Positions 1,918 to 59,265 of a DNA stretch of 59,388 nucleotides are shown here, in pieces. The notes below the pieces were generated by a model, which saw only the letters and a list, made by a program, of their open reading frames with translations, was not told the DNA's origin and searched no databases. The translations under genes and the position numbers were made by a program. Positions within the stretch are counted from its first letter, which is position 1. Every line of letters begins with the position of its first letter. Source of the stretch: Betaproteobacteria bacterium RIFCSPLOWO2_02_64_14 (GTDB lineage: Bacteria > Pseudomonadota > Gammaproteobacteria > Burkholderiales > SG8-41); contig MEQT01000085.1 of assembly GCA_001770325.1 (NCBI GenBank), positions 3,801 to 63,188 of the forward strand, in the 5' to 3' direction.

Positions 1918-2029
1918 GGTGAACAGTGAACAGCGAACAGAATGCGGTCAAAGGCGTGAGCCGTGATCCGTGATCCGATGGGAAATCGGACCGGATTTGT
2001 CGGTTCACGGCTCACGAATCGCGGATCAC
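1918..2029. repeat. Heptamer tandem arrays with inverted arms (array A)
   Basis: GGTGAAC AGTGAAC AGCGAAC AGAATGC (1918-1945). GTGAGCC GTGATCC GTGATCC (1956-1976). The inverted set is GGTTCAC GGCTCAC GAATCGC GGATCAC (2002-2029). The last unit contains the iclR-family stop codon (TGA on the minus strand, 2026-2028). Confidence 0.9.
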
Positions 2030-2793
2030 TGCTTTTGGTGGCCGATGGCGCGGGAAATTATCTCCGCCGTCTGGCGCACCTGCACCGCCCACGCCCTGTT
2101 GAGCCGATCCGACGGAGCGGAGACCGACAGGCCCGCCACCAGGCGGCCCTCGTCGTTATGGATGCCGGCGCCGATGCAGGAGACACCTTTCTCGGCTTCC
2201 TCGTCGTCGACGGCGTAGCCCTGCTCCCGCACCCGTTCCAGTTCCTGCGCCAGCCGCGCCGGATCGGTGAGCGTGTTCCCGGTGTACCTGGGCAGCCCGG
2301 TGCGTTTTGCATAGAGCGCGGATTTCTCCGGCCCGTCCTCGGCGAGAAACAGCTTGCCGACCGCGGTAATGTGCAGCGGCGCGCGGGCGCCGATGATCTG
2401 CACGACGCGCATCATCGAGCTGTTGCCCGCGGTGCGTTCGATGTAGACCATTTCGTCGTCGTGGCGCAGCGATAGATGCACTGTCTCGCCGAGCTGTTGC
2501 TGCAGGTTTTGCATGAACGGCAGCGCCTCCTGCCGGATGCTGATGCGGGATTTCACCAGGTTGCCGAGTTCGAGCAGCCGGATGCCGAGCCGGTAGGTGC
2601 CGGGTTCGATGCGATCGACGAGGCGATTCTCCACCATGACTCCGAGAATGCGATGGGCGGTCGAAGGATGGAGCTGAGTCTCGAGCGCCAGCTGCTTCAG
2701 ATTGACCGGCGTGCCATGCCCGGCAAGAGTATCGATGAGGTGCATCATGCGGGAGATGACCTGGATCGACGACTTGGCTGGTTTGGCGGGCAT
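2026..2793 (-). CDS. IclR-family transcriptional regulator
   Basis: N-terminal wHTH (SRMMHLIDTLAGHGTPVNLKQLALETQLHPSTAHRIL) plus a C-terminal IclR effector-domain pattern (VHLSLRHDDEMVYIER..., GVSCIGAGI). Confidence 0.85.
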   Translation of the reverse strand: MPAKPAKSSIQVISRMMHLIDTLAGHGTPVNLKQLALETQLHPSTAHRILGVMVENRLVDRIEPGTYRLGIRLLELGNLVKSRISIRQEALPFMQNLQQQLGETVHLSLRHDDEMVYIERTAGNSSMMRVVQIIGARAPLHITAVGKLFLAEDGPEKSALYAKRTGLPRYTGNTLTDPARLAQELERVREQGYAVDDEEAEKGVSCIGAGIHNDEGRLVAGLSVSAPSDRLNRAWAVQVRQTAEIISRAIGHQKQ

Positions 2794-2961
2794 GCGGGCG
2801 GGGAAAGGGGGAAATGGTTCCTGATTTTATATGATGAAATTTGGCCGGACAACCGCGGAACGGGTGGTATTGCCGGTGGACCATGCCGGACGAAAAAATG
2901 CCGCTTACTCCAGACAGGTCGTTTTGGCTAAACTTGCACGATCAGCGATTGGCAAAGAGTC

Positions 2962-3492
2962 ATGACGAACCGGGCGCGCAGCCTCACTTCCACCCCCGTC
3001 GCCGAGACGGGCGGCAAGAACTACATCACTCCGCGCGGGTACACCCGCCTCAAGGCGGAGCTGCTGCAACTGCTTGACCGGGAGCGTCCGGAACTGGTGC
3101 GGACCGTGGCATGGGCCGCGTCCAACGGCGATCGTTCGGAAAACGGCGACTACATCTACGGCAAGAAACGATTGCGTGAAATCGACCGCCGCATACGCTA
3201 TCTCACAAAGCAGCTCGATACGGCGGAAGTCGTCGACCCCGCCCGGCGCGGCGACACGGACCGGATTTTTTTCGGCGCCACTGTCGTTTATCTGAATGAC
3301 AGCGGATCGAGCCAGACGGTCACGATCACCGGCAAGGACGAGGCCGATCCCCGGCGCGGCGAGGTGAGCTGGTTGTCGCCGGTCGCGCGCGCGCTCATGC
3401 GGCGCCGCGCGGGAGACGTCGCGCTTCTCGCGACGCCGGCGGGTGAGGAGCAGCTCGAAATCCTCGAAGTGCGTTACGAGTCGGTAACGTGA
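2962..3492 (+). CDS. greB: Transcription elongation factor GreB
   Basis: [62 protein letters not shown] closely matches the remembered E. coli GreB (TREGYEKLKQEL...[33 protein letters not shown]). About 18-aa N-terminal extension. Confidence 0.9.
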   Translation: [176 protein letters not shown]

Positions 3493-3574
3493 CGGACCCG
3501 GGTTCGTATTCGAGGGACGATGACATAAACGCGCGGGGGCGTCACGCTCCCAGTGTCCACGCGCCGGGGCGCAT

Positions 3575-4552
3575 ATGACCGTATCCTTCTTCACCGCCGC
3601 CTTGTCGACGTGGCGCGCGACCCATGCCCCGCTCGCAGAGGCATCGGGCGCGGAGAATCTGGATGACGCGGTGGTCAAGTTAAGCATCAAGGCCGCGCCC
3701 GGCGCGCGCACTGCAGAGACGCTGGGGGCGGAGCGGGAAGGCACGGGCGTCGTGATCGGTGCCGAGGGCCTTGTGGTCACGATCGGTTATCTGATACTGG
3801 AAGCGGGCTCGATCCTGGTGGTGGCGCCCGACGGGCGGGTTTTTCCCGCCACCGTGGTGGGTTACGATCACGCGACCGGCTTCGGCGTGCTGCGCACCGC
3901 GCGCGATGTTGCCCGCAGGCCGTTCGAATTGGGTGAGTCTTCGAGCGTGAAGGAACTCGCGACGCTCACGGTCGCCGCGCACGCCGCTGCCGGCGGCGTG
4001 TCGCATGCTTGCGTGGTATCGCGGCGGCGCTTTACCGGCTGGTGGGAGTACATGATCGACAGCGCGATCTTCACCTCCCCGCCACGCTACGAGCACAGCG
4101 GTGCGGCATTGGTCGACTCCGCCGGCCGGCTGGTCGGAATTGCCTCGCTGTGGGTCGGCGATGCGGTGGACCTCGGCGTCGCGTTTCCCGGGAACATGTT
4201 TGTGCCGATCGACCTGCTCAAACCGTCACTCGCCGAACTTGCCTCGGGCCGGCGCACGCAGGCACCGCGGCCCTGGCTCGGCGTGTATTCCGAGGAGGTG
4301 GAGGGACACGTGGTGGTGACGCGGGTGTTGGCCGGCGCCCCTGCGGACAAGGCGGGGTTGCGGCGCGGCGACGTGATCCTCGGGGTGGGTGGTCAGTCGA
4401 TCGGCGGGCAGAGCCAGTTCTACAGCAGGCTCTGGGCAGCGGGCGCGGCGGGCACGGAAATCACGCTGCACGTCGTTCGCGACCGCGCGGTGCGGCAGAT
4501 CCAGGTGCGGTCGGTTGACCGGATGGAATTCCTGTTGCCGTGGCGCATCTAG
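3575..4552 (+). CDS. Trypsin-like (S1C/HtrA-like) domain protein with C-terminal PDZ domain; catalytic triad apparently non-canonical
   Basis: GTGVVIGAEGLVVT..., ...HSGAALVDSAGRLVGI (serine-protease fold motifs). PDZ-like VVVTRVLAGAPADKAGLRRGDVILGVGGQSI. No obvious signal peptide. Confidence 0.7.
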   Translation: MTVSFFTAALSTWRATHAPLAEASGAENLDDAVVKLSIKAAPGARTAETLGAEREGTGVVIGAEGLVVTIGYLILEAGSILVVAPDGRVFPATVVGYDHATGFGVLRTARDVARRPFELGESSSVKELATLTVAAHAAAGGVSHACVVSRRRFTGWWEYMIDSAIFTSPPRYEHSGAALVDSAGRLVGIASLWVGDAVDLGVAFPGNMFVPIDLLKPSLAELASGRRTQAPRPWLGVYSEEVEGHVVVTRVLAGAPADKAGLRRGDVILGVGGQSIGGQSQFYSRLWAAGAAGTEITLHVVRDRAVRQIQVRSVDRMEFLLPWRI

Positions 4553-4556
4553 AACC

Positions 4557-4646
4557 GGTCAACCGTGACCAGTGACCGGCGATCGGCAAGGTCGGTGATC
4601 CATATGCCGTGCTGCACGAATAGCGCGTTGCCGGTCACCAGGTGAC
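4557..4646 (+). repeat. Heptamer array B plus downstream palindrome
   Basis: GGTCAAC CGTGACC AGTGACC GGCGATC ... GGTGATC (4557-4599) starts 4 nt after the protease-like gene stop. GTCACC-A-GGTGAC perfect palindrome at 4634-4646. Confidence 0.8.
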
Positions 4647-4673
4647 GAGGCGACGCCGCAGGAAAACCAGCGC

Positions 4674-5666
4674 ATGAAGCAGACCCTTGCCTTGACCCTC
4701 GCCCTGTGCGCATCTCTCGCGGCGGTGACGCCTGGCGCAGGCCGCGCGGCGATGGCTGCGGATCAAGGTCTCTCGATCACGCGGTCCGCACCCCATGCTC
4801 TTTATGCCGACCGCTTTGCGTATACCGGACAGGTTGCTGCCGCCGAGCAGCCTCGCCTGAATGCGACGGCAACCACGCGGGACGCATCCCCAACGCCGCA
4901 ACAGTTGCGGGTACGGAACGCCGTGTTGATCGCCGGCAGCAGCTTTCTGGTCGGGGCCTATGGGTTGCACAAGTGGTGGAACGACGGCTTCACCGGAGAC
5001 TTCCGGACCGTGGGCGAAGACTGGTTCGGGCAGGGCACGCCCTACGGCGGCGCGGACAAGCTTGGCCATGCCTTTTTTGCCTATGCCGGAACGAGGCTGC
5101 TCACGCTGGGTTTCGAAGGAGTGGGCAACGATCGCGATCGCGCGCTCAAACTCGGCGCCTGGACCACCCTGGGCATCATGACGGCGGTTGAGGTGCTGGA
5201 CGGCTACTCCAGGCAATACAAGTTCAGCAAGGAAGACGCGATCATGAACGTCGCCGGAACGGCATTCGGGTATCTGCTGGAAAGTAACCCCGGTCTGGAC
5301 CGGTTGCTCGATTTTCGATTGCTCTACAAGCGGTCTGCCGGCAAGTTCGATCCTGGCGGTGATTACTCCGGACAAAAGTACCTGCTCGCCGTGAAGGCGA
5401 GCGGAATTCCTGCGCTGCGTGAAAATCCACTGCTCCGTTATTTCGAGTTGGCGGCGGGTTACGGTACGCGCGGCTACGAGAGCGCCCCGGGAGTGGAGCG
5501 AAGCCGGCATTTGTATTTCGGCATCTCGTTGAATCTTTCCGAAATACTGGGGCAGACCGTATTCCGTGGTGCGAGCGAACGCAGCCGCGCGCAGCGCGCG
5601 ACGGACCTTTTCTTCGAGTTCATTCAGGTGCCGGGCACTGCGGCGCTCGCTGATCACCGCTTGTAA
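4674..5666 (+). CDS. Secreted/lipoprotein-like protein, DUF2279(YfiM)-like (function unknown)
   Basis: Signal peptide MKQTLALTLALCASLAAV.... GGADKLGHAFFAY motif, remembered from DUF2279 lipoproteins. Family assignment tentative. Confidence 0.6.
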   Translation: MKQTLALTLALCASLAAVTPGAGRAAMAADQGLSITRSAPHALYADRFAYTGQVAAAEQPRLNATATTRDASPTPQQLRVRNAVLIAGSSFLVGAYGLHKWWNDGFTGDFRTVGEDWFGQGTPYGGADKLGHAFFAYAGTRLLTLGFEGVGNDRDRALKLGAWTTLGIMTAVEVLDGYSRQYKFSKEDAIMNVAGTAFGYLLESNPGLDRLLDFRLLYKRSAGKFDPGGDYSGQKYLLAVKASGIPALRENPLLRYFELAAGYGTRGYESAPGVERSRHLYFGISLNLSEILGQTVFRGASERSRAQRATDLFFEFIQVPGTAALADHRL

Positions 5667-5714
5667 CCGGTGCTGCGGACACTGTAGCCGTTCAACGAGC
5701 TTTGCGGTGATTCT

Positions 5715-6425
5715 TCACCGGCGCGCGCGGATGCGCCGGGTGCCGAAGCTTGCGTCCGGGCGCGCGCCGCGTGCGGGAATCCGGACAGAGCGCCCGCGCG
5801 CGGCATGCACGGGGTGCTGCAGCCCTTCGAGAAACAGGTCGACGAGCTGCTCGGCATCCCGCTTGAGCGGAGAGCCGTCGGGGTCCATGACCGACTTGCC
5901 GATCAACCCGTCGAGCAGCGCGTGCAGACCAAGCGCGGCGCGGCGCGCATCCAATCCTTTCGGCAGTTGGCCGCGCGCGATGGCGGCCTTGAGGCCTTTT
6001 TCAATGCCCGCAAGACAGCCCGCCTGCATTTCGTTCAATCGCTTCCACACCGGGCGCATCTCGTCCACGTACTCGCACTTGTGGAACACGATGTGGAACA
6101 CCCGGCGCGCCTGCGGGTCCTCGCATGTGCGCCGCAGGATGGCCACCATCATGCCCCTGATGCTCGCGAGGGGATCAGCCGCGGCGCCGTGATCGACCCG
6201 GCACGGCGCGTCTTCCATGGGCAGCGTTACGCGCGCCACCATCTTGCAGAAGAGATCCGCCTTGTCCTGGAAATGCCAATAAATCGCGCCACGCGTGACG
6301 CCCGCCGCGGCCGCGATGTCGGCAAGCGAGGTGCGCGAAACCCCCCGCTCGCTGAATACCCGCTCCGCGGTGTCGAGGATGACATTGCGCGTCTCGAGTG
6401 CCTCGTCTTTCGTGCGTCTTACCAC
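5715..6425 (-). CDS. TetR/AcrR-family repressor, divergent from the RND efflux operon
   Basis: ILDTAERVFSERGVSRTSLADIAAAAGVTRGAIYWHFQDKADLF is a canonical TetR HTH. Divergent to the MFP/RND genes. Confidence 0.9.
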   Translation of the reverse strand: MVRRTKDEALETRNVILDTAERVFSERGVSRTSLADIAAAAGVTRGAIYWHFQDKADLFCKMVARVTLPMEDAPCRVDHGAAADPLASIRGMMVAILRRTCEDPQARRVFHIVFHKCEYVDEMRPVWKRLNEMQAGCLAGIEKGLKAAIARGQLPKGLDARRAALGLHALLDGLIGKSVMDPDGSPLKRDAEQLVDLFLEGLQHPVHAARGRSVRIPARGARPDASFGTRRIRARR

Positions 6426-6532
6426 GTGGTGACCATCCTTTGCGGGATGCGGTTGCGCACCACCTCCCGTCCGGTATTTTCGGAAAGTTGAGTCAGCAGC
6501 AGGGGCAGCACGCCGTTCACTGCTCCCGGCTC

Positions 6533-6560
6533 TTTACATACATACAAGATTGTATGTAAA
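6533..6560. promoter_or_regulatory. Candidate TetR operator: perfect 10-bp inverted repeat TTTACATACA-N8-TGTATGTAAA
   Basis: AT-rich palindrome in the 182-nt divergent intergenic region, 48 nt upstream of the MFP start. Confidence 0.6.
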
Positions 6561-6607
6561 CTGGCCGCCTTCTGCAAGCTTGTCCGGCCACAGAAATCGG
6601 AACGAAC

Positions 6608-7807
6608 ATGACGAAATCCAGCTTCTTGCAGTCCGGCCCGGTGCTGCGCGCGGTTTTGGTGCCGGCCATTATCCTGCTCGCGGCGGGCTGCAAGCCCGCT
6701 GCGGGCCCGCCGGGCGGATTCCCGCCACCGGTGGTCTCGGTCACTGTGGTCGAGGCGAAGGACGTGCCGGTGACCTACGAGTACGTGGCGCAGACCGCGG
6801 GCTATCGCGAGGTCGAAGTGCGCGCGCGGGTGACGGGGATCCTGCTCAAGCGCAACTACAGGGAGGGCGTGACCGTGAAGCGGGGTGAGTCGCTGTTCAC
6901 GATCGATCCCGCGCCGTTCCAGGTCGCGCTTGCCCGGGCGGAGGCGGATGTCGGCGTCGCCGAGGCCCGCCTCGCACAGGCGAAGCGCGAAGCGGCGCGG
7001 TTGAGGCCGGTATTGGAAGCGCGCGCGGTGAGCCGCAAGGAACTCGACGATGCCCTGTCCGCCGAGCAGGTCGCGGAGGCCGAGCTGAAGGTCGCCCGCG
7101 CGCGGGTGGCCGAGGCGAACTTGAATCTCGACTACACGCGGGTCGAGGCGTCGATCTCCGGGATCGCGGGCCGTGCAGCGGTGTCAGAAGGCACGCTCGT
7201 CTCGGGGCCCAACGTGCTGCTCACCACGGTCACGCAGATCGATCCGATGTACGCGCTCTTCGGCATTCCGGACCGCGAGCATCTCGCGATACGGCGCGAC
7301 GTCGAGGCCGGGCGGCTGAAGCTGCCGGAGGGCGGGCGCTTCAAGGCCGCCGTGAAGCTCGCCGACGGCAGCCTCTACAAGCTTGCCGGGGCCCTCAATT
7401 TCACCGACGTTCGGGTGAGCACGCAGACAGGCACCAGCGAAGCCCGCGCGGAGTTTCCCAATGGCGGGGGCATGCTGCGCGCCGGTGAGTTCGTGCGCGT
7501 CGTGCTGACGGGCGCAGTGCGTCCCGGCGTGATCGTCGTGCCGCAGCGCGCGGTGCTGGAAAGTCCCAAGGGCAAGTTCGTCTACGTCGTCAACGCAGAG
7601 GGGAGGGCTGAGGCGCGTCCCACGGAAGTCGGCGACTGGACCGGTGCCGGCTGGATCATCAACAGCGGGCTCAAGGCGGGCGACCGGGTCATCGTCGATG
7701 GCGTGATGAAAATCGGCCCCGGCGCGCCGGTGAAGGTCGCCGATGCGACCGCCACACCACCGGCTGTGCCGGCACCCGTCCTCGACGAGGAGGGGAAACA
7801 ACAGTGA
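6608..7807 (+). CDS. RND efflux periplasmic adaptor (membrane fusion protein, AcrA/MexA family)
   Basis: Lipoprotein-type signal (LLAAGC), coiled-coil hairpin region, typical MFP beta-barrel motifs. Stop overlaps the RND start (GTGA). Confidence 0.9.
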   Translation: MTKSSFLQSGPVLRAVLVPAIILLAAGCKPAAGPPGGFPPPVVSVTVVEAKDVPVTYEYVAQTAGYREVEVRARVTGILLKRNYREGVTVKRGESLFTIDPAPFQVALARAEADVGVAEARLAQAKREAARLRPVLEARAVSRKELDDALSAEQVAEAELKVARARVAEANLNLDYTRVEASISGIAGRAAVSEGTLVSGPNVLLTTVTQIDPMYALFGIPDREHLAIRRDVEAGRLKLPEGGRFKAAVKLADGSLYKLAGALNFTDVRVSTQTGTSEARAEFPNGGGMLRAGEFVRVVLTGAVRPGVIVVPQRAVLESPKGKFVYVVNAEGRAEARPTEVGDWTGAGWIINSGLKAGDRVIVDGVMKIGPGAPVKVADATATPPAVPAPVLDEEGKQQ

Positions 7808-15992: not shown

Positions 15993-17537
15993 ATGAGCGC
16001 GAAGCGTCCCAATATCCTGCTCATCACGTCGGACCAGCAGCGCGCGGACTGCAATGGCTTCGAAAACCCGCGCATCCGCACCCCGCATACCGACGGCCTT
16101 GCACGCGCGGGCACGCGCTTTGCCGCGTGCATCACGCCCAACCTCGTATGCCAGCCCTCGCGCGCGTCGATCCTGACGGGGCTGCTGCCGCTGACCCACG
16201 GCGTATGGGACAACGGTGTCGATCTCGATCCACGGGTTGGTGAGCAGGGGTTCGCAGGCACGCTGGCGCGCGCAGGCTACCAGACGGCATTCATCGGCAA
16301 GGCGCACTTCTCGACCAAATCGACCTTCGCGCCGACCGGCACACCGGAATGCAACAAGAGCCAGGCGCAATACGGGCCGAACTGGTTCGGCCCGTATATG
16401 GGATTCGAGCATGTCGAATTGTGTGTCCTGGGTCATCTTCATCGCACGCGCAAGCTCGAACGCCCGCCGGTGGGTCATTATGAAAGATGGCTGGTGGCGC
16501 GCGGCAGCGACGAGGAAGGCATCAAGCGCTGGGCGCAGGACACCCGCGCCGGCACCGGCGCGGCACAGACCTGGTATTCCGCGCTCCCGGTTGCCTGGCA
16601 CAACACCACCTGGGCCGGCGACCGCGCCATCGACTGGCTCGTGCGGCAGAGAGACACGCGACAACCGTTCTGCGCCTGGGTGTCTTTTCCCGACCCGCAC
16701 CACCCGTTCGACTGCCCCGAACCGTGGAGCCGGATGTACGACCCGAAGGACATGGTCCTGCCGGCGCATCGCGTGCGCGACCTGGGGCGCCGTCCGTGGT
16801 GGCACAAGGCGTCGCTCGAGAACAAGCCGCAGCTCACCGATCCGGAGATGCTCAAGTTCCGCGCCGAAGGCTCGCGCGTGCCCGACCAGAGCGACGCGCA
16901 ACTGGCGGAGATGACCGCCAACTACTACGGCATGATCTCGCTCATCGATCACAACGTCGGCCGCATTCTCACGGCGCTCGACGATCTGGGGATCGCGGAG
17001 GATACGCTGGTGGTGTATACCACCGATCATGGCGAGATGCTGGGCAATCACGGGCTCTACCTGAAAGGCCCGACGCCCTACGAGGATCTTCTGCGCGTGA
17101 CGATGGTGGCGCGCGGACCCGGAGTTGCGAAGGGCGCAGCGATCGCCGAGCCGGTGTCGACGCTGGATCTCGCGGCGACGTTCTACGATGCGGCTGGAGA
17201 ATCGGCGCCGCGGGCGCTGCAGGGCCGCAGCCTTGTGCGGCTGCTCCGTGGCGATGCGGAAACACGCGACCTCGCCTGGAGCGAGTGGCACGTGCATCCC
17301 TCGCGCTGCGGGGTGCCGCTCAAGCTGAGAACCGTGCGCACCCGTACGCACAAGTGCACGTTCGAGCTGGAATCCGGCGCCGGTGAACTCTACGATCTCG
17401 CCAATGATCCGGGTGAAATGAACAATCTGTTCGACGATCCAGGCTATGCTGCCGTGCGCAAGGAACTCCACGCCATGATGCGCGCGCGGCCGGGAAAGGT
17501 GCGCGAGGACCTGCCGGAGCCGATCGGCATGGCCTGA
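15993..17537 (+). CDS. Sulfatase (Cys-type), no signal peptide
   Basis: PNILLITSDQQRAD ... CQPSRASILTG (C-x-P-S-R motif). Confidence 0.9.
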   Translation: MSAKRPNILLITSDQQRADCNGFENPRIRTPHTDGLARAGTRFAACITPNLVCQPSRASILTGLLPLTHGVWDNGVDLDPRVGEQGFAGTLARAGYQTAFIGKAHFSTKSTFAPTGTPECNKSQAQYGPNWFGPYMGFEHVELCVLGHLHRTRKLERPPVGHYERWLVARGSDEEGIKRWAQDTRAGTGAAQTWYSALPVAWHNTTWAGDRAIDWLVRQRDTRQPFCAWVSFPDPHHPFDCPEPWSRMYDPKDMVLPAHRVRDLGRRPWWHKASLENKPQLTDPEMLKFRAEGSRVPDQSDAQLAEMTANYYGMISLIDHNVGRILTALDDLGIAEDTLVVYTTDHGEMLGNHGLYLKGPTPYEDLLRVTMVARGPGVAKGAAIAEPVSTLDLAATFYDAAGESAPRALQGRSLVRLLRGDAETRDLAWSEWHVHPSRCGVPLKLRTVRTRTHKCTFELESGAGELYDLANDPGEMNNLFDDPGYAAVRKELHAMMRARPGKVREDLPEPIGMA

Positions 17538-17541: not shown

Positions 17542-17576
17542 CAATGCGGAATGATGAATGCTGAATTATGAATGCG
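17542..17576 (+). repeat. Heptamer array C (GAATGNN x5)
   Basis: CAATGCG GAATGAT GAATGCT GAATTAT GAATGCG, starting 4 nt after the sulfatase stop. Same unit family as array H at 59168. Confidence 0.9.
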
Positions 17577-17620
17577 GGGCGAGATGGTTTCCAGGATAGT
17601 GGCCCGATCACCCGGAGGAG

Positions 17621-18382
17621 GTGACCGAATTTGAGACAGGTTCTACCTCGGTGAAAGTCGCGCTGTTCGTCACCTGTCTCGTCGATCTGATGCGTCCGCG
17701 CATCGGATTTGCGGCGCTGAGACTGCTCGAAGCGGCCGGCTGTGATGTCGTCGTGCCCCGCGCCCAGACCTGTTGCGGCCAGCCCGGCTACAACTCGGGA
17801 GATCGGAAGTCGGCACTGGCGCTCGCGCGCAAGGTGCTCGGAGAGTTCGAAGAATGCGATTACGTCGTCGCGCCCTCGGGATCGTGCGCCGGCATGATCC
17901 GCACGCATTATCCCGATTTGTTTGCGGACGATCCGGCGGCGTTGGGACGGGTCGAACGTTTGTGCGATCGCACCTACGAACTCACCGACTTCCTGGTGAA
18001 CGTGGTCAAGCTCGAACGCGTGCCCGGTGTCTTCCGGGGGACAGTCACGTATCACGATTCCTGTTCGGGACTGCGCGAGTTGGGAGTCAAGGCGCAGCCG
18101 CGCGCACTGCTGGCCAGGGTGCCGGGCCTCGTCGTCAAGGAGATGGAGGAATGTGAAACTTGCTGCGGCTTCGGCGGCACGTTTGCGGTCAAGTTCGGGG
18201 ACATTTCCTCGCACATCGCCGAACGCAAGTGCGCGAACATCGCGGCGAGCGGGGCGAACGCCGTGGTGCTCGGCGATCTCGGCTGCATGCTCAACATCGA
18301 AGGCCGGCTGCGGCGGCGCGGCGACATCGAAACCCGGGTATGGCATGTGGCGGAAGTGCTCGCCGGCACGGGCGACGCATGA
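17621..18382 (+). CDS. lutA: L-lactate utilization protein LutA (CCG-domain Fe-S oxidoreductase)
   Basis: VALFVTCLVDLMRP ... AQTCCGQPGYNSG ... YHDSCSGLRELG ... ETCCGFGG (two CCG motifs). GTG start preceded by GGAGGAG. Confidence 0.85.
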   Translation: MTEFETGSTSVKVALFVTCLVDLMRPRIGFAALRLLEAAGCDVVVPRAQTCCGQPGYNSGDRKSALALARKVLGEFEECDYVVAPSGSCAGMIRTHYPDLFADDPAALGRVERLCDRTYELTDFLVNVVKLERVPGVFRGTVTYHDSCSGLRELGVKAQPRALLARVPGLVVKEMEECETCCGFGGTFAVKFGDISSHIAERKCANIAASGANAVVLGDLGCMLNIEGRLRRRGDIETRVWHVAEVLAGTGDA

Positions 18383-18472
18383 CGGATGACATGACATACC
18401 CGCGCGGCGCGGCGAAACACCCGCCGCAGTGTCGGCCGTGTGACACCGGGAGCAGCACGATGATCAAGGCGA

Positions 18473-18543
18473 AACGCAGAAGGCGGAAGAGAGAACGCAG
18501 AAGTGTTGGGGGCAATTCATCCTTCATCCTTCATCCTTCATCC
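18473..18543 (+). repeat. Heptamer array D in the lutA-lutB spacer
   Basis: Degenerate AACGCAG AAGGCGG AAGAGAG AACGCAG AAGTGTT (18473-18507), then perfect TTCATCC x4 (18516-18543), ending 12 nt before the lutB start. GCATGAC GGATGAC ATGAC units (18377-18397) overlap the lutA stop and are roughly inverse to TTCATCC. Confidence 0.85.
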
Positions 18544-18555
18544 TTGTGGTAATCC

Positions 18556-19986
18556 ATGCAGGTCACTTCTTCGCAGTTCAAGCAGACGGCGCGGGTCAAG
18601 CTCACCGATCCCCGATTGCAGGCCGCGCTCCGGAAGCTGCAAGGTAACTTCGTCAAGGGGCGCGCTGACCGCATTGCCGAACTCGACAACTTCGAGGACA
18701 TACGCGACGCGGCTGCGGCGATACGCGACCGGGCGCTCGCGCACCTCGATCGGTACTTGGAGGAATTCGAGAACAACGCGACGGCGCGCGGCGCGATAGT
18801 GCATTGGGCCGAGACCGCGGCCGACGTGAACCGCATCGTGTGCGAAATCGCAGCGCGCCACGGTGTGCGCCGGATCGCGAAGTCGAAGTCGATGGTTACC
18901 GAGGAGTGCGGGCTCAACGATGCGCTGGAAGCAGCCGGTTACGAAGTCGTCGAAACCGATCTCGGCGAGTACATCCTGCAGCTTGCGCACGAGCATCCGT
19001 CGCACATTGTGGCACCGGTGGTGCACAAGAGCCGGGACGAGGTGTCGGACCTGTTCGCGGCAAAGCACGGCCAGCCGCGCAAGTCAGACATCGCGGAACT
19101 CACGCGCGAAGCGCGGCTCATGCTGCGTCCCCGGTTTCTGGCGGCCGACATGGGGGTCACCGGCGCGAATTTCCTCATCGCGGAGACCGGCTCGACGCTG
19201 ATCGTGACCAACGAGGGCAACGGCCGGATGGTCACCACGCTGCCGCGCGTGCACGTCGCGATCACCGGCATCGAGAAGGTGGTGCCGACGCTGGAGGATG
19301 TCGCGACGCTCCTGCGCCTGTTGCCGCGCCACGGCACGGGGCAAGCGGTGACCAACTACATTTCGCTGACGACCGGGGTGCGCGGCAAGGACGAGAGCGA
19401 CGGTCCGGAGCATTTTCACGTCATCCTGGTGGACGCCGGACGCACCCGGCTCCTCGGCACGGATTTGCAGCCGATGTTGCGCTGCATCCGCTGCGGCGCC
19501 TGCATGAATCACTGCCCGGTGTACCAGAGCATTGGCGGCCACGCCTACGGGTGGGTGTACCCCGGACCCATGGGGTCGGTGCTGACGCCGAGTTACGTCG
19601 GGCTCGAAAACGCGCTCGATCTCCCGCACGCGGCGACCCTGTGCAATCAGTGCGGTGTCGTGTGCCCGGTGAAGATTCCGTTGCCCGAACTTCTGCGCAA
19701 GCTTCGCGAGCAACAGTTCGAGCGCCGGCTGCGCCCGGCGGCGGAAAGAATGGGGCTCGCGCTTTGGGGACGGATCGCACAGCGTCCAGCGCTCTATGCG
19801 TTCGCCGCGCGTATCGCAGCGAAAATCCTCGCATGGATCGGCGGCAGGGAGAAATTGGTCCACAGCCTGCCGTTTGCGGGCGGATGGACCGGGGGCCGGG
19901 ATCTGCCGGCGCCGGAGGGCAGAACTTTCAGGGATTTGTACGCCAGGAGGGGAGCGACGAGAGAAGAGAGTGGAGAGATCAAGTGA
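18556..19986 (+). CDS. lutB: L-lactate utilization protein LutB (4Fe-4S cluster-binding)
   Basis: LutB-type N-terminus, plus CIRCGACMNHCPVY and CNQCGVVCPVKIP ferredoxin motifs. Confidence 0.9.
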   Translation: MQVTSSQFKQTARVKLTDPRLQAALRKLQGNFVKGRADRIAELDNFEDIRDAAAAIRDRALAHLDRYLEEFENNATARGAIVHWAETAADVNRIVCEIAARHGVRRIAKSKSMVTEECGLNDALEAAGYEVVETDLGEYILQLAHEHPSHIVAPVVHKSRDEVSDLFAAKHGQPRKSDIAELTREARLMLRPRFLAADMGVTGANFLIAETGSTLIVTNEGNGRMVTTLPRVHVAITGIEKVVPTLEDVATLLRLLPRHGTGQAVTNYISLTTGVRGKDESDGPEHFHVILVDAGRTRLLGTDLQPMLRCIRCGACMNHCPVYQSIGGHAYGWVYPGPMGSVLTPSYVGLENALDLPHAATLCNQCGVVCPVKIPLPELLRKLREQQFERRLRPAAERMGLALWGRIAQRPALYAFAARIAAKILAWIGGREKLVHSLPFAGGWTGGRDLPAPEGRTFRDLYARRGATREESGEIK

Positions 19987-19993
19987 AGCGAAC

Positions 19994-20028
19994 GTCGTCT
20001 TTCGTCTTTCGTCTGTCGTCTCTCGTCA
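19994..20028 (+). repeat. Heptamer array E (TCGTCTN x5) filling the lutB-lutC spacer
   Basis: GTCGTCT TTCGTCT TTCGTCT GTCGTCT CTCGTCA, from 7 nt after the lutB stop to 4 nt before the lutC start. Confidence 0.9.
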
Positions 20029-20032
20029 GCTC

Positions 20033-20680
20033 ATGAGCGCTCGCGACCGCATCCTGGGCCGGATCCGCGCCGCACAGGGAAAAGCGCCGGTGGCGAGTCC
20101 GCAGGAGCGCGCTGTGGTCGCGTCGTACATCGGCGCGCGCGCGCCAGGTCCCTGCCCGAGCCTCGATTGGGATCCCGCCGTGCGGTTTCGCGAACGGGTG
20201 CTCGCGCTATCGAGCACTTATGAGGACGTCGGCGCGATCGAGGACGCGCCGCGGGCAGTGGCGCATTATCTTCGCGGGCAGGCCTTGCCGCTCACGGCCG
20301 TCTGCTGGCCTGAACTATCCAGTCTCCCATGGCAGGAAGCGGGTCTCGTGGTCGAGACGCGTGCGGCGCGCGGCGACGATCTCGTCGGCATCACCGGCGC
20401 ATACTGCGCCATCGCCGAAACCGGAACGCTGCTGCTGCTCTCGGGCCCGCGCACGCCGGCGGCGGCGAGCCTGCTTCCGGAGACGCACATCGCGTTGGTG
20501 CGGGCGAATTGCATCGTGCATACGATGGAGGACGCATGGGCGCTCGTGCGTGAAGAGCACGGTATGCCGCCGCGCGCGGTGAATTTCGTGTCGGGCCCGT
20601 CGCGCACCGCCGACATCGAACAGACTTTGACACTGGGCGCACACGGGCCGTACCGTGTGCACGTGGTACTGGTTCGTTAA
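20033..20680 (+). CDS. lutC: L-lactate utilization protein LutC
   Basis: MSARDRILGRIR... and position after lutAB, with the LUD-domain pattern (GITGAYCAIAETGTLLL). ATG at 20033 is chosen over the tracked 19796. Confidence 0.8.
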   Translation: MSARDRILGRIRAAQGKAPVASPQERAVVASYIGARAPGPCPSLDWDPAVRFRERVLALSSTYEDVGAIEDAPRAVAHYLRGQALPLTAVCWPELSSLPWQEAGLVVETRAARGDDLVGITGAYCAIAETGTLLLLSGPRTPAAASLLPETHIALVRANCIVHTMEDAWALVREEHGMPPRAVNFVSGPSRTADIEQTLTLGAHGPYRVHVVLVR

Positions 20681-54259: not shown

Positions 54260-54263
54260 CGGG

Positions 54264-55601: not shown

Positions 55602-55621
55602 TACGGGAACAGGAGAGCGAT

Positions 55622-55789
55622 ATGCCATTTAAGATCTTCGCGGGTGTCGTCGCAGTGCTGCTACTCGTCAGTTTCGTCATGCCGTATGTGCTGAAGATGA
55701 AGGACATCGCGCTCGCGGTCGTCGTCATGATCGGCGTTTCGATGATGGCTGTCGACCTCTGGCAGTCGCTGAAATCGAAAGAGGACTGA
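55622..55789 (+). CDS. Small (55-aa) two-helix membrane protein, function unknown
   Basis: MPFKIFAGVVAVLLLVSFVMPYVLKMKDIALAVVVMIGVSMMAVDLWQSLKSKED. AGGAGA RBS 6 nt upstream. Extracted from the longer tracked ORF 55223..55789. Confidence 0.55.
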   Translation: MPFKIFAGVVAVLLLVSFVMPYVLKMKDIALAVVVMIGVSMMAVDLWQSLKSKED

Positions 55790-55881
55790 CCGCAATCGGC
55801 GGCGCATCCGCGCGCGAGCAAGGCGCGGCACCCGGCGCCTCCGGCTGATTCAGCACCGTTATCGAGAGGGTCACGAGTCCT

Positions 55882-57144
55882 GTGCCGGCCGCCGCACCCA
55901 GCCTGAGGTGGCTGGTATTCGCTCTCGGCGCAGCGGCGTTCTTCCTGTCGTTTTTTCACCGCGTTGCCCCGGGCGCGCTCGCGGAGGAGCTCACCGCCTC
56001 CTTCGCGGTGAGCGGCGCAACACTCGGTGCGCTCGCGGCAACGTATTTCTACGTGTATTCGGCGATGCAAGTGCCGACCGGTGTGCTGGTCGACACGCTG
56101 GGTCCGCGGCGCGTGCTGACTGCGGGAGGCGTCATCGCAGGCGTAGGTTCGATCATATTTGGCGGGGCCGAATCCGTCGTGACTGCCGCGCTTGGACGCA
56201 CGTTGACGGGACTGGGGGTATCCGTCGCCTTCGTCTGCCTGCTCAAACTCAACGCGAGCTGGTTCGAGGAGCGGCGCTTCGCCACAATGAGCGGCTTCGG
56301 CAACGTCATGGGAATCGTGGGCGCGCTGCTGGCAACCGCCCCGCTCGCGTGGCTCATCACGGTGGTGTCGTGGCGCAGCGTATTCGTGGCAATCGGCATT
56401 GCGTCCCTCGGGGTGTCCGCCGCGACGTGGTTCCTGGTGCGCGACCATCCGGAATGCGAAGGGTTGCCTCAGGGACGTCCGGCGCCACCGCAGACCGAAC
56501 GGTGGTGGCAGGGCCTCGGAGAAATCATGCGCAACCGGGCGACATGGCCCGCCTTCTGGGTCACGTTCGGCATCTCGGGGAGCTATATGAGTTTCATCGG
56601 GCTGTGGGCCGCGCCGTTTTTTCGACAGGCTTACGGCATGTCGGCGATCGCGGCGAACCGGCACACGAGCGTCATGATCGTAGCGTCGGCGATCTCGCTT
56701 GCCACGCTGGGCGTGTTGTCTGACCATCTGCGCCGCCGCCGCCTCCTGATCACCGGATCCGCCATGATGTATCTCGGCTGCTGGGCGTCCTGGTTCACCG
56801 GCATCGCTCCGGGCCACACCTATCTCATGGCGGCTATCACCGGTCTGTGCATGACCGGCTTTTCGCTGGCATGGGCCTGCGCGAAGGAGGTCAATCGTCC
56901 GCGCTACGCCGGGATGGCCATCAGCGTGGCCAACACCGGCGGTTTTCTCGCTGCCGGCATCCTGCAGCCGCTCGTAGGCTGGGTGCTGGATGCGAGCGCC
57001 GGCGGCGTGGCGAATGCCACGACCCTGGACCATTTTCGACCCGCACTTGCCACCCTCGCGTCGTTTACCTTCATCGGGTTCGCCGGCTCGCTGTTTATCC
57101 GCGAGACGCATTGTCGTAACATTTGGGTGGAGAACGGGCGGTAA
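55882..57144 (+). CDS. MFS transporter
   Basis: 12 predicted TM segments. DTLGPRRVL-type loop 2-3 motif. GTG start. Confidence 0.85.
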   Translation: MPAAAPSLRWLVFALGAAAFFLSFFHRVAPGALAEELTASFAVSGATLGALAATYFYVYSAMQVPTGVLVDTLGPRRVLTAGGVIAGVGSIIFGGAESVVTAALGRTLTGLGVSVAFVCLLKLNASWFEERRFATMSGFGNVMGIVGALLATAPLAWLITVVSWRSVFVAIGIASLGVSAATWFLVRDHPECEGLPQGRPAPPQTERWWQGLGEIMRNRATWPAFWVTFGISGSYMSFIGLWAAPFFRQAYGMSAIAANRHTSVMIVASAISLATLGVLSDHLRRRRLLITGSAMMYLGCWASWFTGIAPGHTYLMAAITGLCMTGFSLAWACAKEVNRPRYAGMAISVANTGGFLAAGILQPLVGWVLDASAGGVANATTLDHFRPALATLASFTFIGFAGSLFIRETHCRNIWVENGR

Positions 57145-57242
57145 GCAGTGAGCAGTGAGCAGTGAGCGGTAAGCAGTAAGCGGTAAGCGGTAAGCGGTGA
57201 GTGGTGAACGGTGAATGGTGAACGGTGAATGGTGAACGGTGG
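57138..57242 (+). repeat. Heptamer array F, 15 consecutive units (longest in the window)
   Basis: GCGGTAA GCAGTGA x3 GCGGTAA GCAGTAA GCGGTAA x2 GCGGTGA GTGGTGA ACGGTGA ATGGTGA ACGGTGA ATGGTGA ACGGTGG. The first unit contains the MFS stop codon TAA (57142-57144). Confidence 0.95.
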
Positions 57243-57281
57243 ATGGCCTGGCGCATTGACGTATTCCAATCAAGGTAGAGA

Positions 57282-58277
57282 ATGAAACCAAAGATACTGG
57301 TTACGCGGGAGGTATTCGACGAGACGCTCGCATACCTCGCGCAGGCCTGCGAAGTCGAGTCCAACCAGAACGACGCGGCGCTGACGCCCGAAGCCCTCAG
57401 GCAGCGGCTGCGCGACAAGCGTGGCGTCATGTGCTGCCTCACCGACCGTATCGATGCCGCGCTGCTCGCGGAGGCGCAGCAGCTTAAGGTGGTCGCGAAC
57501 ATTGCGGTGGGTTATAACAACATCGACGTGGCGGCGTGCACCGCCCGCGGCGTGATGGCGACCAACACGCCCGGCGTTCTCGATGACAGCACCGCGGACC
57601 TCGCCTGGGCGTTGATGCTCGCCGCTGCGCGGCGGCTGACCGAGGTCGAAAGTTACATCCGCGGCGGTGAGTGGACCGGCTGGCGGTTGAAACAATGGCT
57701 GGGTGTGGATGTGCATCACGCCACGCTCGGCATCGTCGGCATGGGACGCATCGGGCAGGTCATCGCCAGGCGCGCAGCGGGTTTCGACATGCGCGTCGTC
57801 TATCACAACCGGAACCGGCTCGCGCCCGACATCGAGCAGCGGCTCAACGCCGCCTATGTCACGAAGGACGAACTTCTCCGGCAATCCGACTTCGTGGTGC
57901 TGCAGGTGCCGTATTCTCCGGAAACGCACCATCTCATCGGGGCGGCGGATCTGAAGCGCATGAAGCCGACCGCGATACTGGTCAATTCCACGCGCGGCGG
58001 CGTGGTCGACGATGCCGCGCTGGTCGACGCCCTGAAAGCCGGCACGATCCGCGCCGCAGGCCTCGACGTATTCGAGAACGAGCCCCGCCTTCATCCCGGA
58101 TTCCTTGGCCTGCGCAACGTGGTGCTCGCGCCCCATGTCGGTAGTTCGACCGAAGCGACGCGCCGTGCGATGGCGATGACGGCGGCGAAGAACCTGGTTG
58201 CGGCGCTCGCTGGCGCAACGCCACCCAATCTCCTGAACCCCGAATCACGAGCCACGAGTCACGAGCCACGTACGTGA
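57282..58277 (+). CDS. D-isomer-specific 2-hydroxyacid dehydrogenase (glyoxylate/hydroxypyruvate/2-ketogluconate reductase-like)
   Basis: GIVGMGRIGQVIARRA (NAD fold), ILVNSTRGGVVDDAAL, GLDVFENEP, VLAPHVGSST. Confidence 0.9.
   Translation: MKPKILVTREVFDETLAYLAQACEVESNQNDAALTPEALRQRLRDKRGVMCCLTDRIDAALLAEAQQLKVVANIAVGYNNIDVAACTARGVMATNTPGVLDDSTADLAWALMLAAARRLTEVESYIRGGEWTGWRLKQWLGVDVHHATLGIVGMGRIGQVIARRAAGFDMRVVYHNRNRLAPDIEQRLNAAYVTKDELLRQSDFVVLQVPYSPETHHLIGAADLKRMKPTAILVNSTRGGVVDDAALVDALKAGTIRAAGLDVFENEPRLHPGFLGLRNVVLAPHVGSSTEATRRAMAMTAAKNLVAALAGATPPNLLNPESRATSHEPRT
58246..58273 (+). repeat. Heptamer array G inside the last codons of the dehydrogenase gene
   Basis: CACGAGC CACGAGT CACGAGC CACGTAC encodes the tail ...SRATSHEPRT and ends 1 nt before the stop codon (58275-58277). 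Confidence 0.85.
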
Positions 58278-58287
58278 GGCACGCGCA

Positions 58288-59187
58288 ATGAAACTCGGAT
58301 TCATCGGTCTTGGCGTCATGGGACGCCCGATGGCGTTGAATCTCATGAAGCACGGGCACGAAATGGGTGTCTACGCGCGGCGCGCGGAGGCGGTGGCCCC
58401 GCTCGTGGCGGCGGGCGCGGTGCGCTACGCGACGCCGGCGGAGCTTGCTCCGAATGCGGAGATCACGTTCACCATGGTCACGAATTCGCGCGATGTCGAG
58501 GAGGTGGTGCTCGGCGAGCAGGGCGTGATACACGGCGCGCGTGAGGGCAGCGTGCTGGTCGATATGGAGACGATTTCGCCGGCGGTGGCGCGCGCTGTCG
58601 CAGCGGCCCTCGAGGCGAAAGGGATCGCCATGCTCGATGCGCCGGTATCCGGCGGGCCGATGGGCGCCGCGCAGGCCACGCTCTCGATCATGGCGGGCGG
58701 CAAGGCGGAAGTTTTCGAGCGAGTGAAGCCGCTCCTCGCGTGCATGGGCAAGACGATCTTGCACATGGGTGCGAGCGGCGCCGGACAGATTACCAAGGCG
58801 TGCAATCAGCTTGCCTTGCTGGTGAATGCCCAGGGAACGGCCGAAGCGATGACGCTGGCGCATGCCTGCGGTCTCGATCCCGCCAGGGTGCGCGAGGTGC
58901 TGCTCGGCGGGGTTGCGGCGAGCCGGGTGCTCGAACTCTTCGGCGAGCGCATGGTCACGCGCGATTTCTCCGCCGGCATCGAGGCGCGCCTCTATCACAA
59001 GGATCTTCACATCGCGCTTGGTCTCGCGCATGAGGCCGGCCTCGCGCATGAGGCCGGCCTCGCGGTGCCTGCTGCGGCCCTCACCATGCAGAGCGTCAAC
59101 GCCCTGATCGGACGAGGGGAGGGCGGGAGCGATCTTTCCGCCTTGATCAAAGTGGTGGAGGGCATGCGAATGCGGAATGCGGAATGA
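58288..59187 (+). CDS. NAD(P)-dependent 3-hydroxyacid dehydrogenase family (2-hydroxy-3-oxopropionate/tartronate semialdehyde reductase-like)
   Basis: MKLGFIGLGVMGRPMALNL, DAPVSGG, KACNQL, KDLHIAL are HIBADH/GarR-family motifs. Confidence 0.85.
   Translation: MKLGFIGLGVMGRPMALNLMKHGHEMGVYARRAEAVAPLVAAGAVRYATPAELAPNAEITFTMVTNSRDVEEVVLGEQGVIHGAREGSVLVDMETISPAVARAVAAALEAKGIAMLDAPVSGGPMGAAQATLSIMAGGKAEVFERVKPLLACMGKTILHMGASGAGQITKACNQLALLVNAQGTAEAMTLAHACGLDPARVREVLLGGVAASRVLELFGERMVTRDFSAGIEARLYHKDLHIALGLAHEAGLAHEAGLAVPAAALTMQSVNALIGRGEGGSDLSALIKVVEGMRMRNAE
59023..59064 (+). repeat. Perfect 18-bp in-frame tandem duplication (CTCGCGCATGAGGCCGGC x2 + CTCGCG)
   Basis: Encodes LAHEAG-LAHEAG-LA within the reductase. 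The copies at 59023-59040 and 59041-59058 are identical. Confidence 0.95.
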
Positions 59188-59265
59188 TGAATGCGGAACA
59201 AATGTTGACGGACGCAGTACTCGATTCATTATTCATCATTCCGCGTTCATCATTCATCATTCGAA
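59161..59265. repeat. Heptamer array H: GAATGNN units, spacer, and inverted ATTCATN units (long hairpin)
   Basis: GAATGCG GAATGCG GAATGAT GAATGCG (59168-59195; the reductase stop TGA is at 59185-59187). Inverted ATTCATT ATTCATC ATTCCGC GTTCATC ATTCATC ATTCGAA (59224-59265). 59182-59198 pairs with 59239-59255 over 17 bp with one G-U position. Confidence 0.9.

Follow-up and report, generated by a model that had tools for sequence, protein, structure and literature searches.

Heptanucleotide tandem arrays at gene ends in an uncultured groundwater Burkholderiales lineage

Heptanucleotides are the commonest class of long simple sequence repeats (LSSRs) in most bacterial genomes, and four Burkholderia genomes rank among the ten richest in repeats of 5–11 nt, as the survey of Mrazek (2007) is summarized in PMC4679880. 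Eight loci with arrays of this kind are described here from a 59,388-nt stretch of contig MEQT01000085.1 (Betaproteobacteria bacterium RIFCSPLOWO2_02_64_14; the whole length of this stretch is hereafter the window), where each lies on or beside the 3' end of a gene. With a probability of about 0.6, these arrays are hypermutable heptanucleotide simple sequence repeats of the LSSR or short tandemly repeated repetitive (STRR) class, resized by slippage and retained at gene ends, and the hairpins predicted at some loci are most likely a by-product. The arrays fit this class on every defining feature tested, being tandem beyond chance, dominated by period 7, mostly non-coding and polymorphic by whole units, and their unit sequence differs from that of each named family. 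They are thus of a kind already known from the microsatellites of Burkholderia, Xanthomonas, cyanobacteria and Beggiatoa, to go by the published accounts and summaries on which this comparison draws.

The preliminary description of the window left undecided whether an equivalent of the cyanobacterial repeats had been reported from proteobacteria; such repeats are described in both Burkholderia and Xanthomonas in the accounts drawn on here (PMC4679880, PMC1853098, PMC4692102). In B. pseudomallei the arrays are built mainly of 6–9-bp motifs in 4–10 units, lie mostly between genes and have mutation rates above 1e-5 per locus per generation; 36% of them have a motif duplicated elsewhere, flanks not included (PMC1853098). 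Polymerase slippage with a 7-nt contact was suggested by the original LSSR authors (Mrazek 2007, as relayed in PMC4679880 and PMC4692102). As in those summaries of the LSSRs (Mrazek, Guo and Shah 2007) and in B. pseudomallei, the repeats in the window consist of short units set head to tail, with heptamers dominant and a mostly intergenic location; they are also scattered among lineages, typically of 4–10 units, found with one motif at several loci without shared flanks, and hypervariable. The contact of arrays with stop codons and the inverted-pair architecture seen in the window are not mentioned in the same summaries, and the host differs in belonging to an uncultured groundwater Burkholderiales lineage.

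The (GGGANTN)n arrays of Xanthomonas occupy ~186 loci per genome, 89–93% of them intergenic, with a mean distance of 28 nt to the open reading frame (ORF) upstream and of 160 nt to the one downstream (Rehm et al. 2015, PMC4692102). They lie mostly between co-directional and rarely between divergent ORFs, include 70–75 convergent inverted pairs with stem-loop potential and differ in length and sequence among close species; the study reports that the majority are transcribed and could assign them no function (PMC4692102). The arrays in the window resemble those of Xanthomonas and Nostoc in lying near the end of the upstream ORF, between co-directional ORFs and partly as convergent inverted pairs. 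In contrast, the (GGGANTN)n units of Xanthomonas and the GGGGA(C/T)T units of Nostoc contain G-tracts that form G-quadruplexes, whereas the units in the window have an RTGA, GAATG or ACGA core and lack G-tracts, and no unit at the eight loci carries a GGG tract repeated four times. Unlike either group of repeats, the units in the window often hold the stop codon of the upstream gene.

A stop-bearing heptamer in forward orientation is also the hallmark of the TAACTGA repeats of marine Beggiatoaceae, cyanobacteria and Bacteroidetes (MacGregor 2015, PMC4679880). These repeats occur at many loci per genome, overlap an ORF end by up to 18 nt, are found in ORF interiors only in reverse orientation and often precede genes without a canonical ribosome-binding site (PMC4679880). 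TAACTGA is one conserved unit with 2–6 copies per set and only one inverted repeat (PMC4679880), whereas the window has many unit variants, up to 15 copies and frequent inverted pairs; TAACTGA sets anchor to the downstream start, most often ending 1 nt before it, and the arrays studied here to the upstream stop. None of the eight loci contains a TAACTGA unit. The likeness to the cyanobacterial STRRs that had been proposed for the window is sound, those sequences being likewise tandem heptanucleotide arrays dispersed in non-coding DNA (Calothrix PCC 7601, as cited in PMC4692102). The two differ in phylum and in unit sequence. STRR units include CCCCAGT, TTGGTCA and CAACAGT, two of which would be one mismatch away from units of the AGTGACC or AGTGAAC type.

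Repetitive extragenic palindromic (REP) sequences, together with the related bacterial interspersed mosaic elements and the REP-derived hairpins known as REPINs, also form hairpins in intergenic DNA after stop codons and between co-directional genes, in many copies per genome and some of them within 15 nt of the stop. REP sequences are, however, genome-wide conserved palindromes of 20–40 nt associated with a RAYT transposase, whereas the arms seen here are heptamer arrays of locus-specific sequence that vary in 7-nt steps. Loops and arms differ among the loci of the window and share no common palindrome, in agreement with the earlier statement that these are not classical REP elements. That they are not clustered regularly interspaced short palindromic repeats (CRISPR) is equally clear from the 7-nt units directly abutting one another, as against 23–50-nt repeats with unique spacers.

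Period specificity and turnover of the arrays

The arrays are real and strictly period-7, are restricted to a lineage and lie in presumably transcribed gaps between co-directional genes. All eight loci listed previously, here numbered 1 to 8 along the window (Table 1), are present at the positions given, with sequences that read as had been described. Tandem Repeats Finder returned period-7 repeats of 3–9 copies each at 1919, 1955, 17549, 18516, 19995, 57138–57246, 58246, 59164 and 59224. A scan of the window for runs of s[i]=s[i+7] with a score of at least 10 yielded nine runs, compared with none or one at each of periods 4–6 and 8–13 scanned alike, and eight at period 14, the harmonic of 7; sequence shuffled in 200-nt blocks gave a mean of 0.21 and a maximum of two period-7 runs. 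The claim of a window-wide family with this period is borne out by these counts. A further scan at lags 3–12 covered the 30 of 43 inter-gene junctions with gaps of at least 25 nt, and lag 7 reached 0.68–0.89 in exactly seven of them, those of the loci other than locus 7, and no more than 0.54 in the remaining 23. Locus 7 sits on the last codons of a gene, outside these gaps, and the array at locus 2 (4557) is marginal and the weakest of the set, with 0.68 at lag 7 versus 0.61 at lag 8.

The gene map used for these comparisons is based on GC content at third codon positions and agrees with the Joint Genome Institute (JGI) and European Nucleotide Archive (ENA) gene calls on contigs bearing identical proteins. 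All eight loci fall between co-directional genes; among gaps of at least 25 nt, arrays are present in 7 of ~23 co-directional and in none of seven divergent or convergent ones, a sample too small for significance. The location is mostly non-coding, consisting of the seven gaps or, at locus 7, a gene's last codons. A search of the whole window with Rfam 15 at the gathering threshold returned no matches.

The longest array, at locus 6, changes in length by whole 7-nt units between populations. Exact-protein look-ups retrieved 22 contigs from JGI and ENA assemblies, in which the same arrays recur, with 10 independent assemblies for locus 1, seven for locus 6 and six for loci 4 and 5; they are therefore no artefact, and the refuting outcome named beforehand, absence from independent assemblies, did not arise. 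The locus 6 segment, measured between the same anchors, has a length of 200 nt in the window; four other assemblies have 165 nt there, and one each has 172 nt and 137 nt. All of these differences are multiples of 7 within near-identical flanks, so the long array behaves as a microsatellite. Loci 1, 2, 3, 4, 5, 7 and 8 are identical or one single-nucleotide polymorphism apart across 5–10 assemblies. In a phase-variable contingency locus, a repeat in a promoter, 5' untranslated region or early coding region would switch a gene on or off as its unit number changes; copy number does vary at locus 6, and the arrays follow stop codons between housekeeping genes, though the pyrimidine arrays at four loci adjoin the next start.

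Arrays have also been inserted into tight junctions and rapidly replaced at orthologous sites. A genome scan with the protein encoded between loci 6 and 7, a 2-hydroxyacid dehydrogenase, produced 80 related loci, only two of which (L001 and L006, from groundwater Burkholderiales genomes) carry period-7 arrays. L001 comes from a groundwater betaproteobacterial metagenome-assembled genome (95% protein identity), in which the units of the locus 6 array stand in another order and the dehydrogenase gene is followed by a different element, composed of GGTGAYC units, a loop and GGTCACT x12. The C terminus of the dehydrogenase is itself repeat-encoded, ending in ..NPESRATSHEPRT before the stop in the window (58246–58277) and in ..NPQAKGARGVTGDR before the stop in L001 (4385–4450), whereas array-free relatives end in ..NPEAxxx. 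In L006 (77% identity), hairpin elements follow both the dehydrogenase gene and the NAD-binding dehydrogenase gene (z = -6.7 and -7.2); these two elements, at 5020–5140 and 7030–7145 and thus 2 kb apart, have in common a 31-nt palindromic core, GGAAAAAGCGTACTATGCTTCGCTATTAACC, in opposite orientation. This core was sought in the other 519 of the 520 loci fetched and was found in none of them.

Junctions in the array-free relatives are compact, and in L002, L005, L006 and L019 the stop of the major facilitator superfamily (MFS) transporter gene overlaps the dehydrogenase start as ATGA. The corresponding gap in the window (57142–57284) is 137 nt and is mostly array. Junctions that were once tight have thus gained arrays in particular lineages, and these arrays turn over fast. 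Two accounts of how such additions might arise were set aside. Truncation of genes by arrays, with a dead 3' remnant left behind, does not fit the MFS and dehydrogenase homologues, which align to within 0–8 residues of the ends. Growth of an array by duplication of an ATGA or GTGA overlap is attractive given the overlap in relatives but is unsupported, because between the array and the start codon lies an unrelated 35-nt spacer that has a ribosome-binding site of its own.

Stop-codon contact and unit families

At loci 1, 6 and 8 the upstream gene ends on a TGA or TAA contained in an array unit. Units supply the last codons or the stop of the upstream gene at six loci, and at loci 2 and 3 the array begins 4–5 nt past the stop. 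Contact was checked with the gene map described above and with the JGI and ENA gene calls, both of which uphold the anchoring on stop codons and the sense orientation that had been reported for the window. At loci 1, 4, 5, 7 and 8 the repeats extend to within 5–15 nt of the next start codon, and essentially the whole intercistronic spacer therefore consists of repeat; the pyrimidine arrays at loci 1, 4, 5 and 8 abut that start. The earlier characterization of the arrays as not coding holds only in part, as units encode C-terminal residues and the stop of several genes. Likewise, stops in all three frames are provided by the TGA- or TAA-bearing units but not by others, such as TCGTCTT and CACGAGC, which hold no stop.

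Unit families overlap between loci: GGTGAAY, AGTGAGC and GGTAAGC units occur at loci 1, 2 and 6, GATGAAT and GCGGAAT units at loci 3 and 8, and GGATGAA at locus 4, and the RTGA-core units of loci 1, 2, 3, 4, 6 and 8 are one or two substitutions apart. The suggested GAATG link between loci 3 and 8 is strong, with 22 of 23 nt identical (17543 versus 59176–59198) where 0.03 matches are expected by chance. A proposed ACGA kinship between 19994 (TCGTCTT) and 58246 (CACGAGC) amounts to a resemblance of just 4 nt.

Anchoring on stops was also assessed outside the window. A metagenome collection scanned with four GTGANCN units gave at least 120 contigs of 33% to 71% GC, and a viral collection scanned with GTGANC units also gave at least 120. 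Control heptamers were abundant as well in the viral collection, with 87 contigs for GAGTNC(N) and 91 for TGGANC(N), so heptamer arrays of many unit types are common; of the idea that a GTGA core is uniquely array-prone, the counts bear out only that GTGANC is at least as common as the controls.

One simple, crude gene caller was applied to all array sets, and arrays with shared flanks were removed, which left 219 de-duplicated GTGANC arrays. Among the matches listed, sense arrays downstream of a gene lay within 20 nt of its stop in 63 of 91 cases (69%), at a median distance of 2–5 nt, compared with 16 of 81 antisense arrays (p = 5e-11); for control heptamer arrays the figure was 21 of 95 (p = 1e-10 versus sense GTGANC). 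Since any ORF running into a sense TGA array is bound to end there, the comparison was repeated with overlaps excluded, and the listed matches still gave 27 of 55 sense versus 8 of 73 antisense arrays within 20 nt (p = 2e-6). Where a gene ran into an array, its stop was the TGA of the first unit in 17 cases, of the second in 6 and of the third in 8, which corresponds to overlap offsets of -4, -11 and -18. The bias to gene 3' ends and to the sense orientation thus holds beyond the window for the GTGANC unit family, the sense proportion standing against ~20% in the antisense and control sets, and for this family the anchoring and orientation reported for the window withstand the check that had been proposed along with them. 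Stop anchoring depends on orientation and unit type, which pure neutral slippage does not fully predict.

Inside ORFs, the listed matches comprised no sense and 18 antisense arrays (L093–L332); the latter would encode heptad-like peptide repeats if the predicted ORFs are real. One 44-kb viral contig, IMGVR_UViG_3300039307_000285 (L230, L262, L275), holds at least 10 separate arrays of GTGANC x4, and several other viral contigs hold 3–5 GTGANC arrays. At L126 and L131, GTGAACC units grade into ATGAACC in arrays of up to 16 copies, and ATGAACC, like the GATGAAT units of the window, combines a start (ATG) with an overlapping stop (TGA).

Origin of the arrays and predicted RNA structures

Under the explanation favoured here, strand slippage, possibly helped by transcription, would create and resize the arrays, and selection would clear them out of coding sequences and promoter regions, as well as out of positions where they cross a stop in antisense orientation. 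Arrays would persist where a 7-nt insertion or deletion is harmless, which is to say directly on or after a stop codon. A TGA- or TAA-bearing unit in sense orientation would be uniquely harmless at a gene end because every frame is closed within 21 nt, and an array could therefore take the place of the original stop and of a few codons before it. Where complementary arrays face each other, a GTGA-type array first and a TCAC-type array second, the transcript would form an imperfect hairpin of 33–55 pairs that bridges the intercistronic region, beginning at the upstream stop and reaching almost to the next start. Such a hairpin is most likely a by-product that could act as a substrate for RNase III or as a barrier to exonucleases, and the hairpin forms are probably tolerated and perhaps used as intercistronic RNA structures.

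Several observations weigh against slippage and retention as the full account. Sense arrays that do not overlap a gene begin 2–16 nt past its stop despite 70–400 nt of free space, and anchoring is also seen for some stop-free arrays, including those at loci 5 and 7 of the window and (GAGTGCA)n. In 17 of 32 cases, above one third, the stop comes from the first unit. The recurrence of unit families at several loci of the window and the 31-nt core common to the two L006 elements both hint at copying between loci, and the predicted RNA fold of the sense strand is at least as stable as that of the antisense strand in all eight elements. In the H. influenzae hmw system, moreover, copy-number change needed transcription, an RNA hairpin and RNase III, and simple polymerase slippage was questioned by the authors of that study (PMC12721329). 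The anchoring without contact or without stops in the units, the first-unit stops, the sense-strand folds and the recurring units and core leave room for a functional or RNA-dependent reading.

The arrays of the window take two architectures, lone direct arrays (loci 3, 6 and 7) and convergent inverted pairs (loci 1, 2, 5 and 8), in which a purine-rich arm of the GTGA, GAATG or GAGA type precedes its complement; locus 4 resembles a pair that has decayed. The paired loci fold into predicted imperfect hairpins of 33–46 pairs, in keeping with the inverted partners noted previously at some loci. The minimum free energy was -50.1 kcal/mol for locus 1 (1909–2035; z = -5.0) and -49.8 for locus 8 (59150–59280; z = -3.7), with z = -2.4 for locus 2 (4550–4675) and -1.5 for locus 5 (19940–20035); no significant fold was obtained at 17535, 18410 or 57135 (loci 3, 4 and 6; z ~0). 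A consensus terminator scan of the window placed no terminator-like site at any array, and no U-tract follows the arrays, which are therefore not intrinsic terminators. The consensus promoter scan of the window gave two promoter-like matches within arrays, which is chance level. Shine-Dalgarno pairing is weak downstream of the arrays and equally weak for many other genes of the window, whose start calls are imperfect.

A possible alternative, to which we give clearly less credence, is that the arrays are selected intercistronic RNA elements, in which long imperfect double-stranded stems running from the upstream stop to the region before the next start would set the expression ratio of neighbouring cistrons. 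This could work through RNase III cleavage, through blocking of 3'-exonucleases or through a terminating ribosome that opens the base of the stem (translational coupling), and copy number would be the tuning knob. Folds of 33–55 predicted pairs with z between -3.7 and -7.2 (loci 1 and 8, the two L006 elements and L001) point in this direction, as do stem bases at loci 1, 5 and 8 that pair the end of the first gene with the 5–15 nt before the start of the second. Convergent partners outnumber divergent ones by 31 to 4 among the GTGANC matches listed, the stability of the sense-strand folds noted above arises via G-U pairs, and the hairpin loci do not differ between assemblies, unlike the lone array at locus 6. 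An experimental precedent exists in H. influenzae, where the (ATCTTTC)n array of hmw1A forms one arm of an RNase III-processed hairpin in the 5' untranslated region that controls hmw1A expression (PMC12721329). Loci 4 and 5 resemble it in setting an array opposite a purine-rich arm just upstream of a start codon, and copy number varies in both systems; hmw1A, however, is a single contingency locus in the 5' untranslated region of a pathogen adhesin gene, with RNase III processing demonstrated, whereas the window offers many loci between housekeeping genes, known from sequence. Three of the eight loci are lone arrays without a fold signal, and the pairing at locus 4 is decayed. The weak Shine-Dalgarno signals after arrays are not unusual for the window, no U-tract is present, closer relatives have no element at all at the same junctions, and the Xanthomonas study saw no regulatory effect (PMC4692102).

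A broader proposal, that RTGA-core arrays are transcription-oriented cis-elements found across phyla, seeded on stop codons and governing the fate of ribosomes and mRNA at cistron boundaries, appears doubtful. If it were true, RNase III cleavage, translational coupling or uncoupling and all-frame termination would be joined in one element with copy number as a heritable tuning knob, and an RNA-dependent expansion like that of hmw would explain the strand bias. To our knowledge, after 35 years neither the reason for period 7 nor any role of heptamer repeats has been established. The window adds a clean example in which units also serve as stop codons, lone arrays are found next to hairpin forms and variation in 7-nt steps can be read from public assemblies. 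If the arrays are neutral, their value is limited to markers for strain typing and to a warning for annotation, namely that many genes have an unstable, repeat-encoded C terminus and stop.

Copying of the arrays to sites after stop codons by a transposase encoded elsewhere, as non-autonomous mobile elements akin to REPINs or miniature inverted-repeat transposable elements, is improbable. It would account for the common core of the two L006 elements, which lies in opposite orientation and is flanked by inverted arrays, for the likeness of loci 3 and 8 over 22 of 23 nt, for the different elements at orthologous junctions of the window and L001, and it recalls the 36% of B. pseudomallei motifs that are duplicated elsewhere without flanks (PMC1853098). 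The hairpin loops of the window, however, are unrelated to one another and to the L006 core, which among the 520 loci is confined to L006. No conserved termini or target-site duplications were seen, length differences are whole heptamers inside an array, and with two unit variants a common order of three units is not very improbable. No transposase-like or RAYT gene was found among the window genes looked up, most of the interval 6.6–55.9 kb being unannotated.

Selection for all-frame stop pads, in which a TGA or TAA every 7 nt would catch ribosomes that have read through leaky UGA or shifted frame near a gene end in a GC-rich genome with few out-of-frame stops, has very little to recommend it: sense-strand TGA or TAA codons are present in units at loci 1, 2, 3, 6 and 8, first units often provide the stop with their TGA and the sense bias at stops is strong, but three units would suffice where arrays reach 15–20, stops are missing from loci 5 and 7 and from some of the anchored control arrays, arrays also occur in contigs of 33–40% GC where stops are plentiful, and close relatives manage without arrays. 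An artefact of short-read metagenomic assembly can practically be discounted, for although the repeats do disturb assembly, with an N-run over locus 2 in one scaffold and several contigs ending in arrays, the arrays are the same base for base in 5–10 independent JGI and ENA assemblies per locus and occur in two other species too.

Anatomy of the eight loci

The features of the eight loci are collected in Table 1. The functions of the genes that flank the arrays are unrelated to one another and show no tie between the arrays and gene function.

Table 1. Heptanucleotide arrays of the window and their flanking genes (flanking genes are given on the first line of each locus; units of minus-strand features are written on that strand)
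Feature	Coordinates	Strand	Units	Upstream gene	Downstream gene
Locus 1, 5' arm	2002..2029	-	GTGATCC GCGATTC GTGAGCC GTGAACC	IclR regulator	Cho-like nuclease
Locus 1, 3' arm	1956..1976	-	GGATCAC GGATCAC GGCTCAC; pairs with 5' arm
Locus 1, outer array	1919..1939	-	TGTTCGC TGTTCAC TGTTCAC
Locus 2	4557..4646	+	weak GTGACC-type units GGTCAAC CGTGACC AGTGACC GGCGATC	protease/PDZ	DUF2279 lipoprotein
Locus 3	17543..17577	+	lone array AATGCGG AATGATG AATGCTG AATTATG AATGCGG	sulfatase	lutA
Locus 4a	18377..18397	+	weak units GCATGAC GGATGAC ATGACAT	lutA	lutB
Locus 4b	18466..18502	+	degenerate purine-rich period-7 run AAGGCGA AACGCAG AAGGCGG AAGAGAG AACGCAG
Locus 4c	18516..18545	+	TTCATCC x4.3, perfect; 10 nt before lutB ATG (18556)
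Locus 5, purine arm	19956..19990	+	GACGAGA GAAGAGA GTGGAGA GATCAAG TGAAGCG	lutB	lutC
Locus 5, pyrimidine arm	19995..20027	+	TCGTCTT x4.7; 5 nt before lutC ATG (20033)
Locus 6	57138..57246	+	lone array, ~15 units (GCGGTAA / GCAGTGA / GGTGAAY)	MFS transporter	2-hydroxyacid dehydrogenase
Locus 7	58246..58273	+	CACGAGC CACGAGT CACGAGC CACGTAC	2-hydroxyacid dehydrogenase	NAD-binding dehydrogenase
Locus 8, 5' arm	59161..59198	+	GCGAATG CGGAATG CGGAATG ATGAATG CGGAAC	NAD-binding dehydrogenase (NAD_binding_2)	HpcH/HpaI aldolase
Locus 8, 3' arm	59224..59265	+	ATTCATT ATTCATC ATTCCGC GTTCATC ATTCATC ATTCGAA

At locus 1, the TGA of the first unit (2028–2026, minus strand) is the stop of the IclR-family gene at 2026–2793. 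The outer array, which pairs with the bases around this stop, stops 10 nt short of the gene for the Cho-like exonuclease, which starts with GTG (1908). The array at locus 2 begins 4 nt past the TAG stop (4552) of the protease/PDZ gene, and a downstream partner, GGTCACC AGGTGAC, completes an imperfect hairpin. That at locus 3 begins 5 nt past the stop of the sulfatase gene (17537). The weak ATGAC units of locus 4a overlap the lutA stop (18380–18382), and locus 4b looks like the decayed partner of the TTCATCC array at 4c. The purine arm of locus 5 encodes the final lutB codons and the stop (19984–19986) and faces the TCGTCTT array.

The TAA of the first unit at locus 6 (57142–57144) is the stop of the MFS gene. 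The array at locus 7 encodes the last 8–10 residues of the 2-hydroxyacid dehydrogenase (tail ..SRATSHEPRT), whose stop comes after the array and whose relatives end ~8 residues before the window protein. At locus 8, the TGA of the fourth unit (59185–59187) is the stop of the NAD_binding_2 dehydrogenase gene, and the 3' arm ends ~10 nt short of the HpcH/HpaI aldolase gene, whose ATG is partly taken into the base of the stem.

The gene downstream of locus 1 (505–1908, minus strand, GTG start) encodes an RNase_T exonuclease domain fused to GIY-YIG, UvrC_M and Cho_C domains; it has weak predicted Shine-Dalgarno pairing, with the heptamer array 10 nt upstream of its start. In an ENA scaffold (ERZ28563641; L515, ~1150–1245) an N-run lies exactly over the locus 2 hairpin, and the L001 sequence stops inside a GGTCACT array, heptamer repeats being prone to break or gap short-read assemblies. 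Five further 4-nt gene overlaps occur in the window, at 7804, 13412, 40093, 42532 and 45999. Within the NAD_binding_2 dehydrogenase gene, positions 59023–59064 hold an in-frame 18-bp tandem duplication (CTCGCGCATGAGGCCGGC x2.3) that is polymorphic in the population, because both of the other assemblies read carry one copy fewer and all five complete gene calls have 293 rather than 299 residues.

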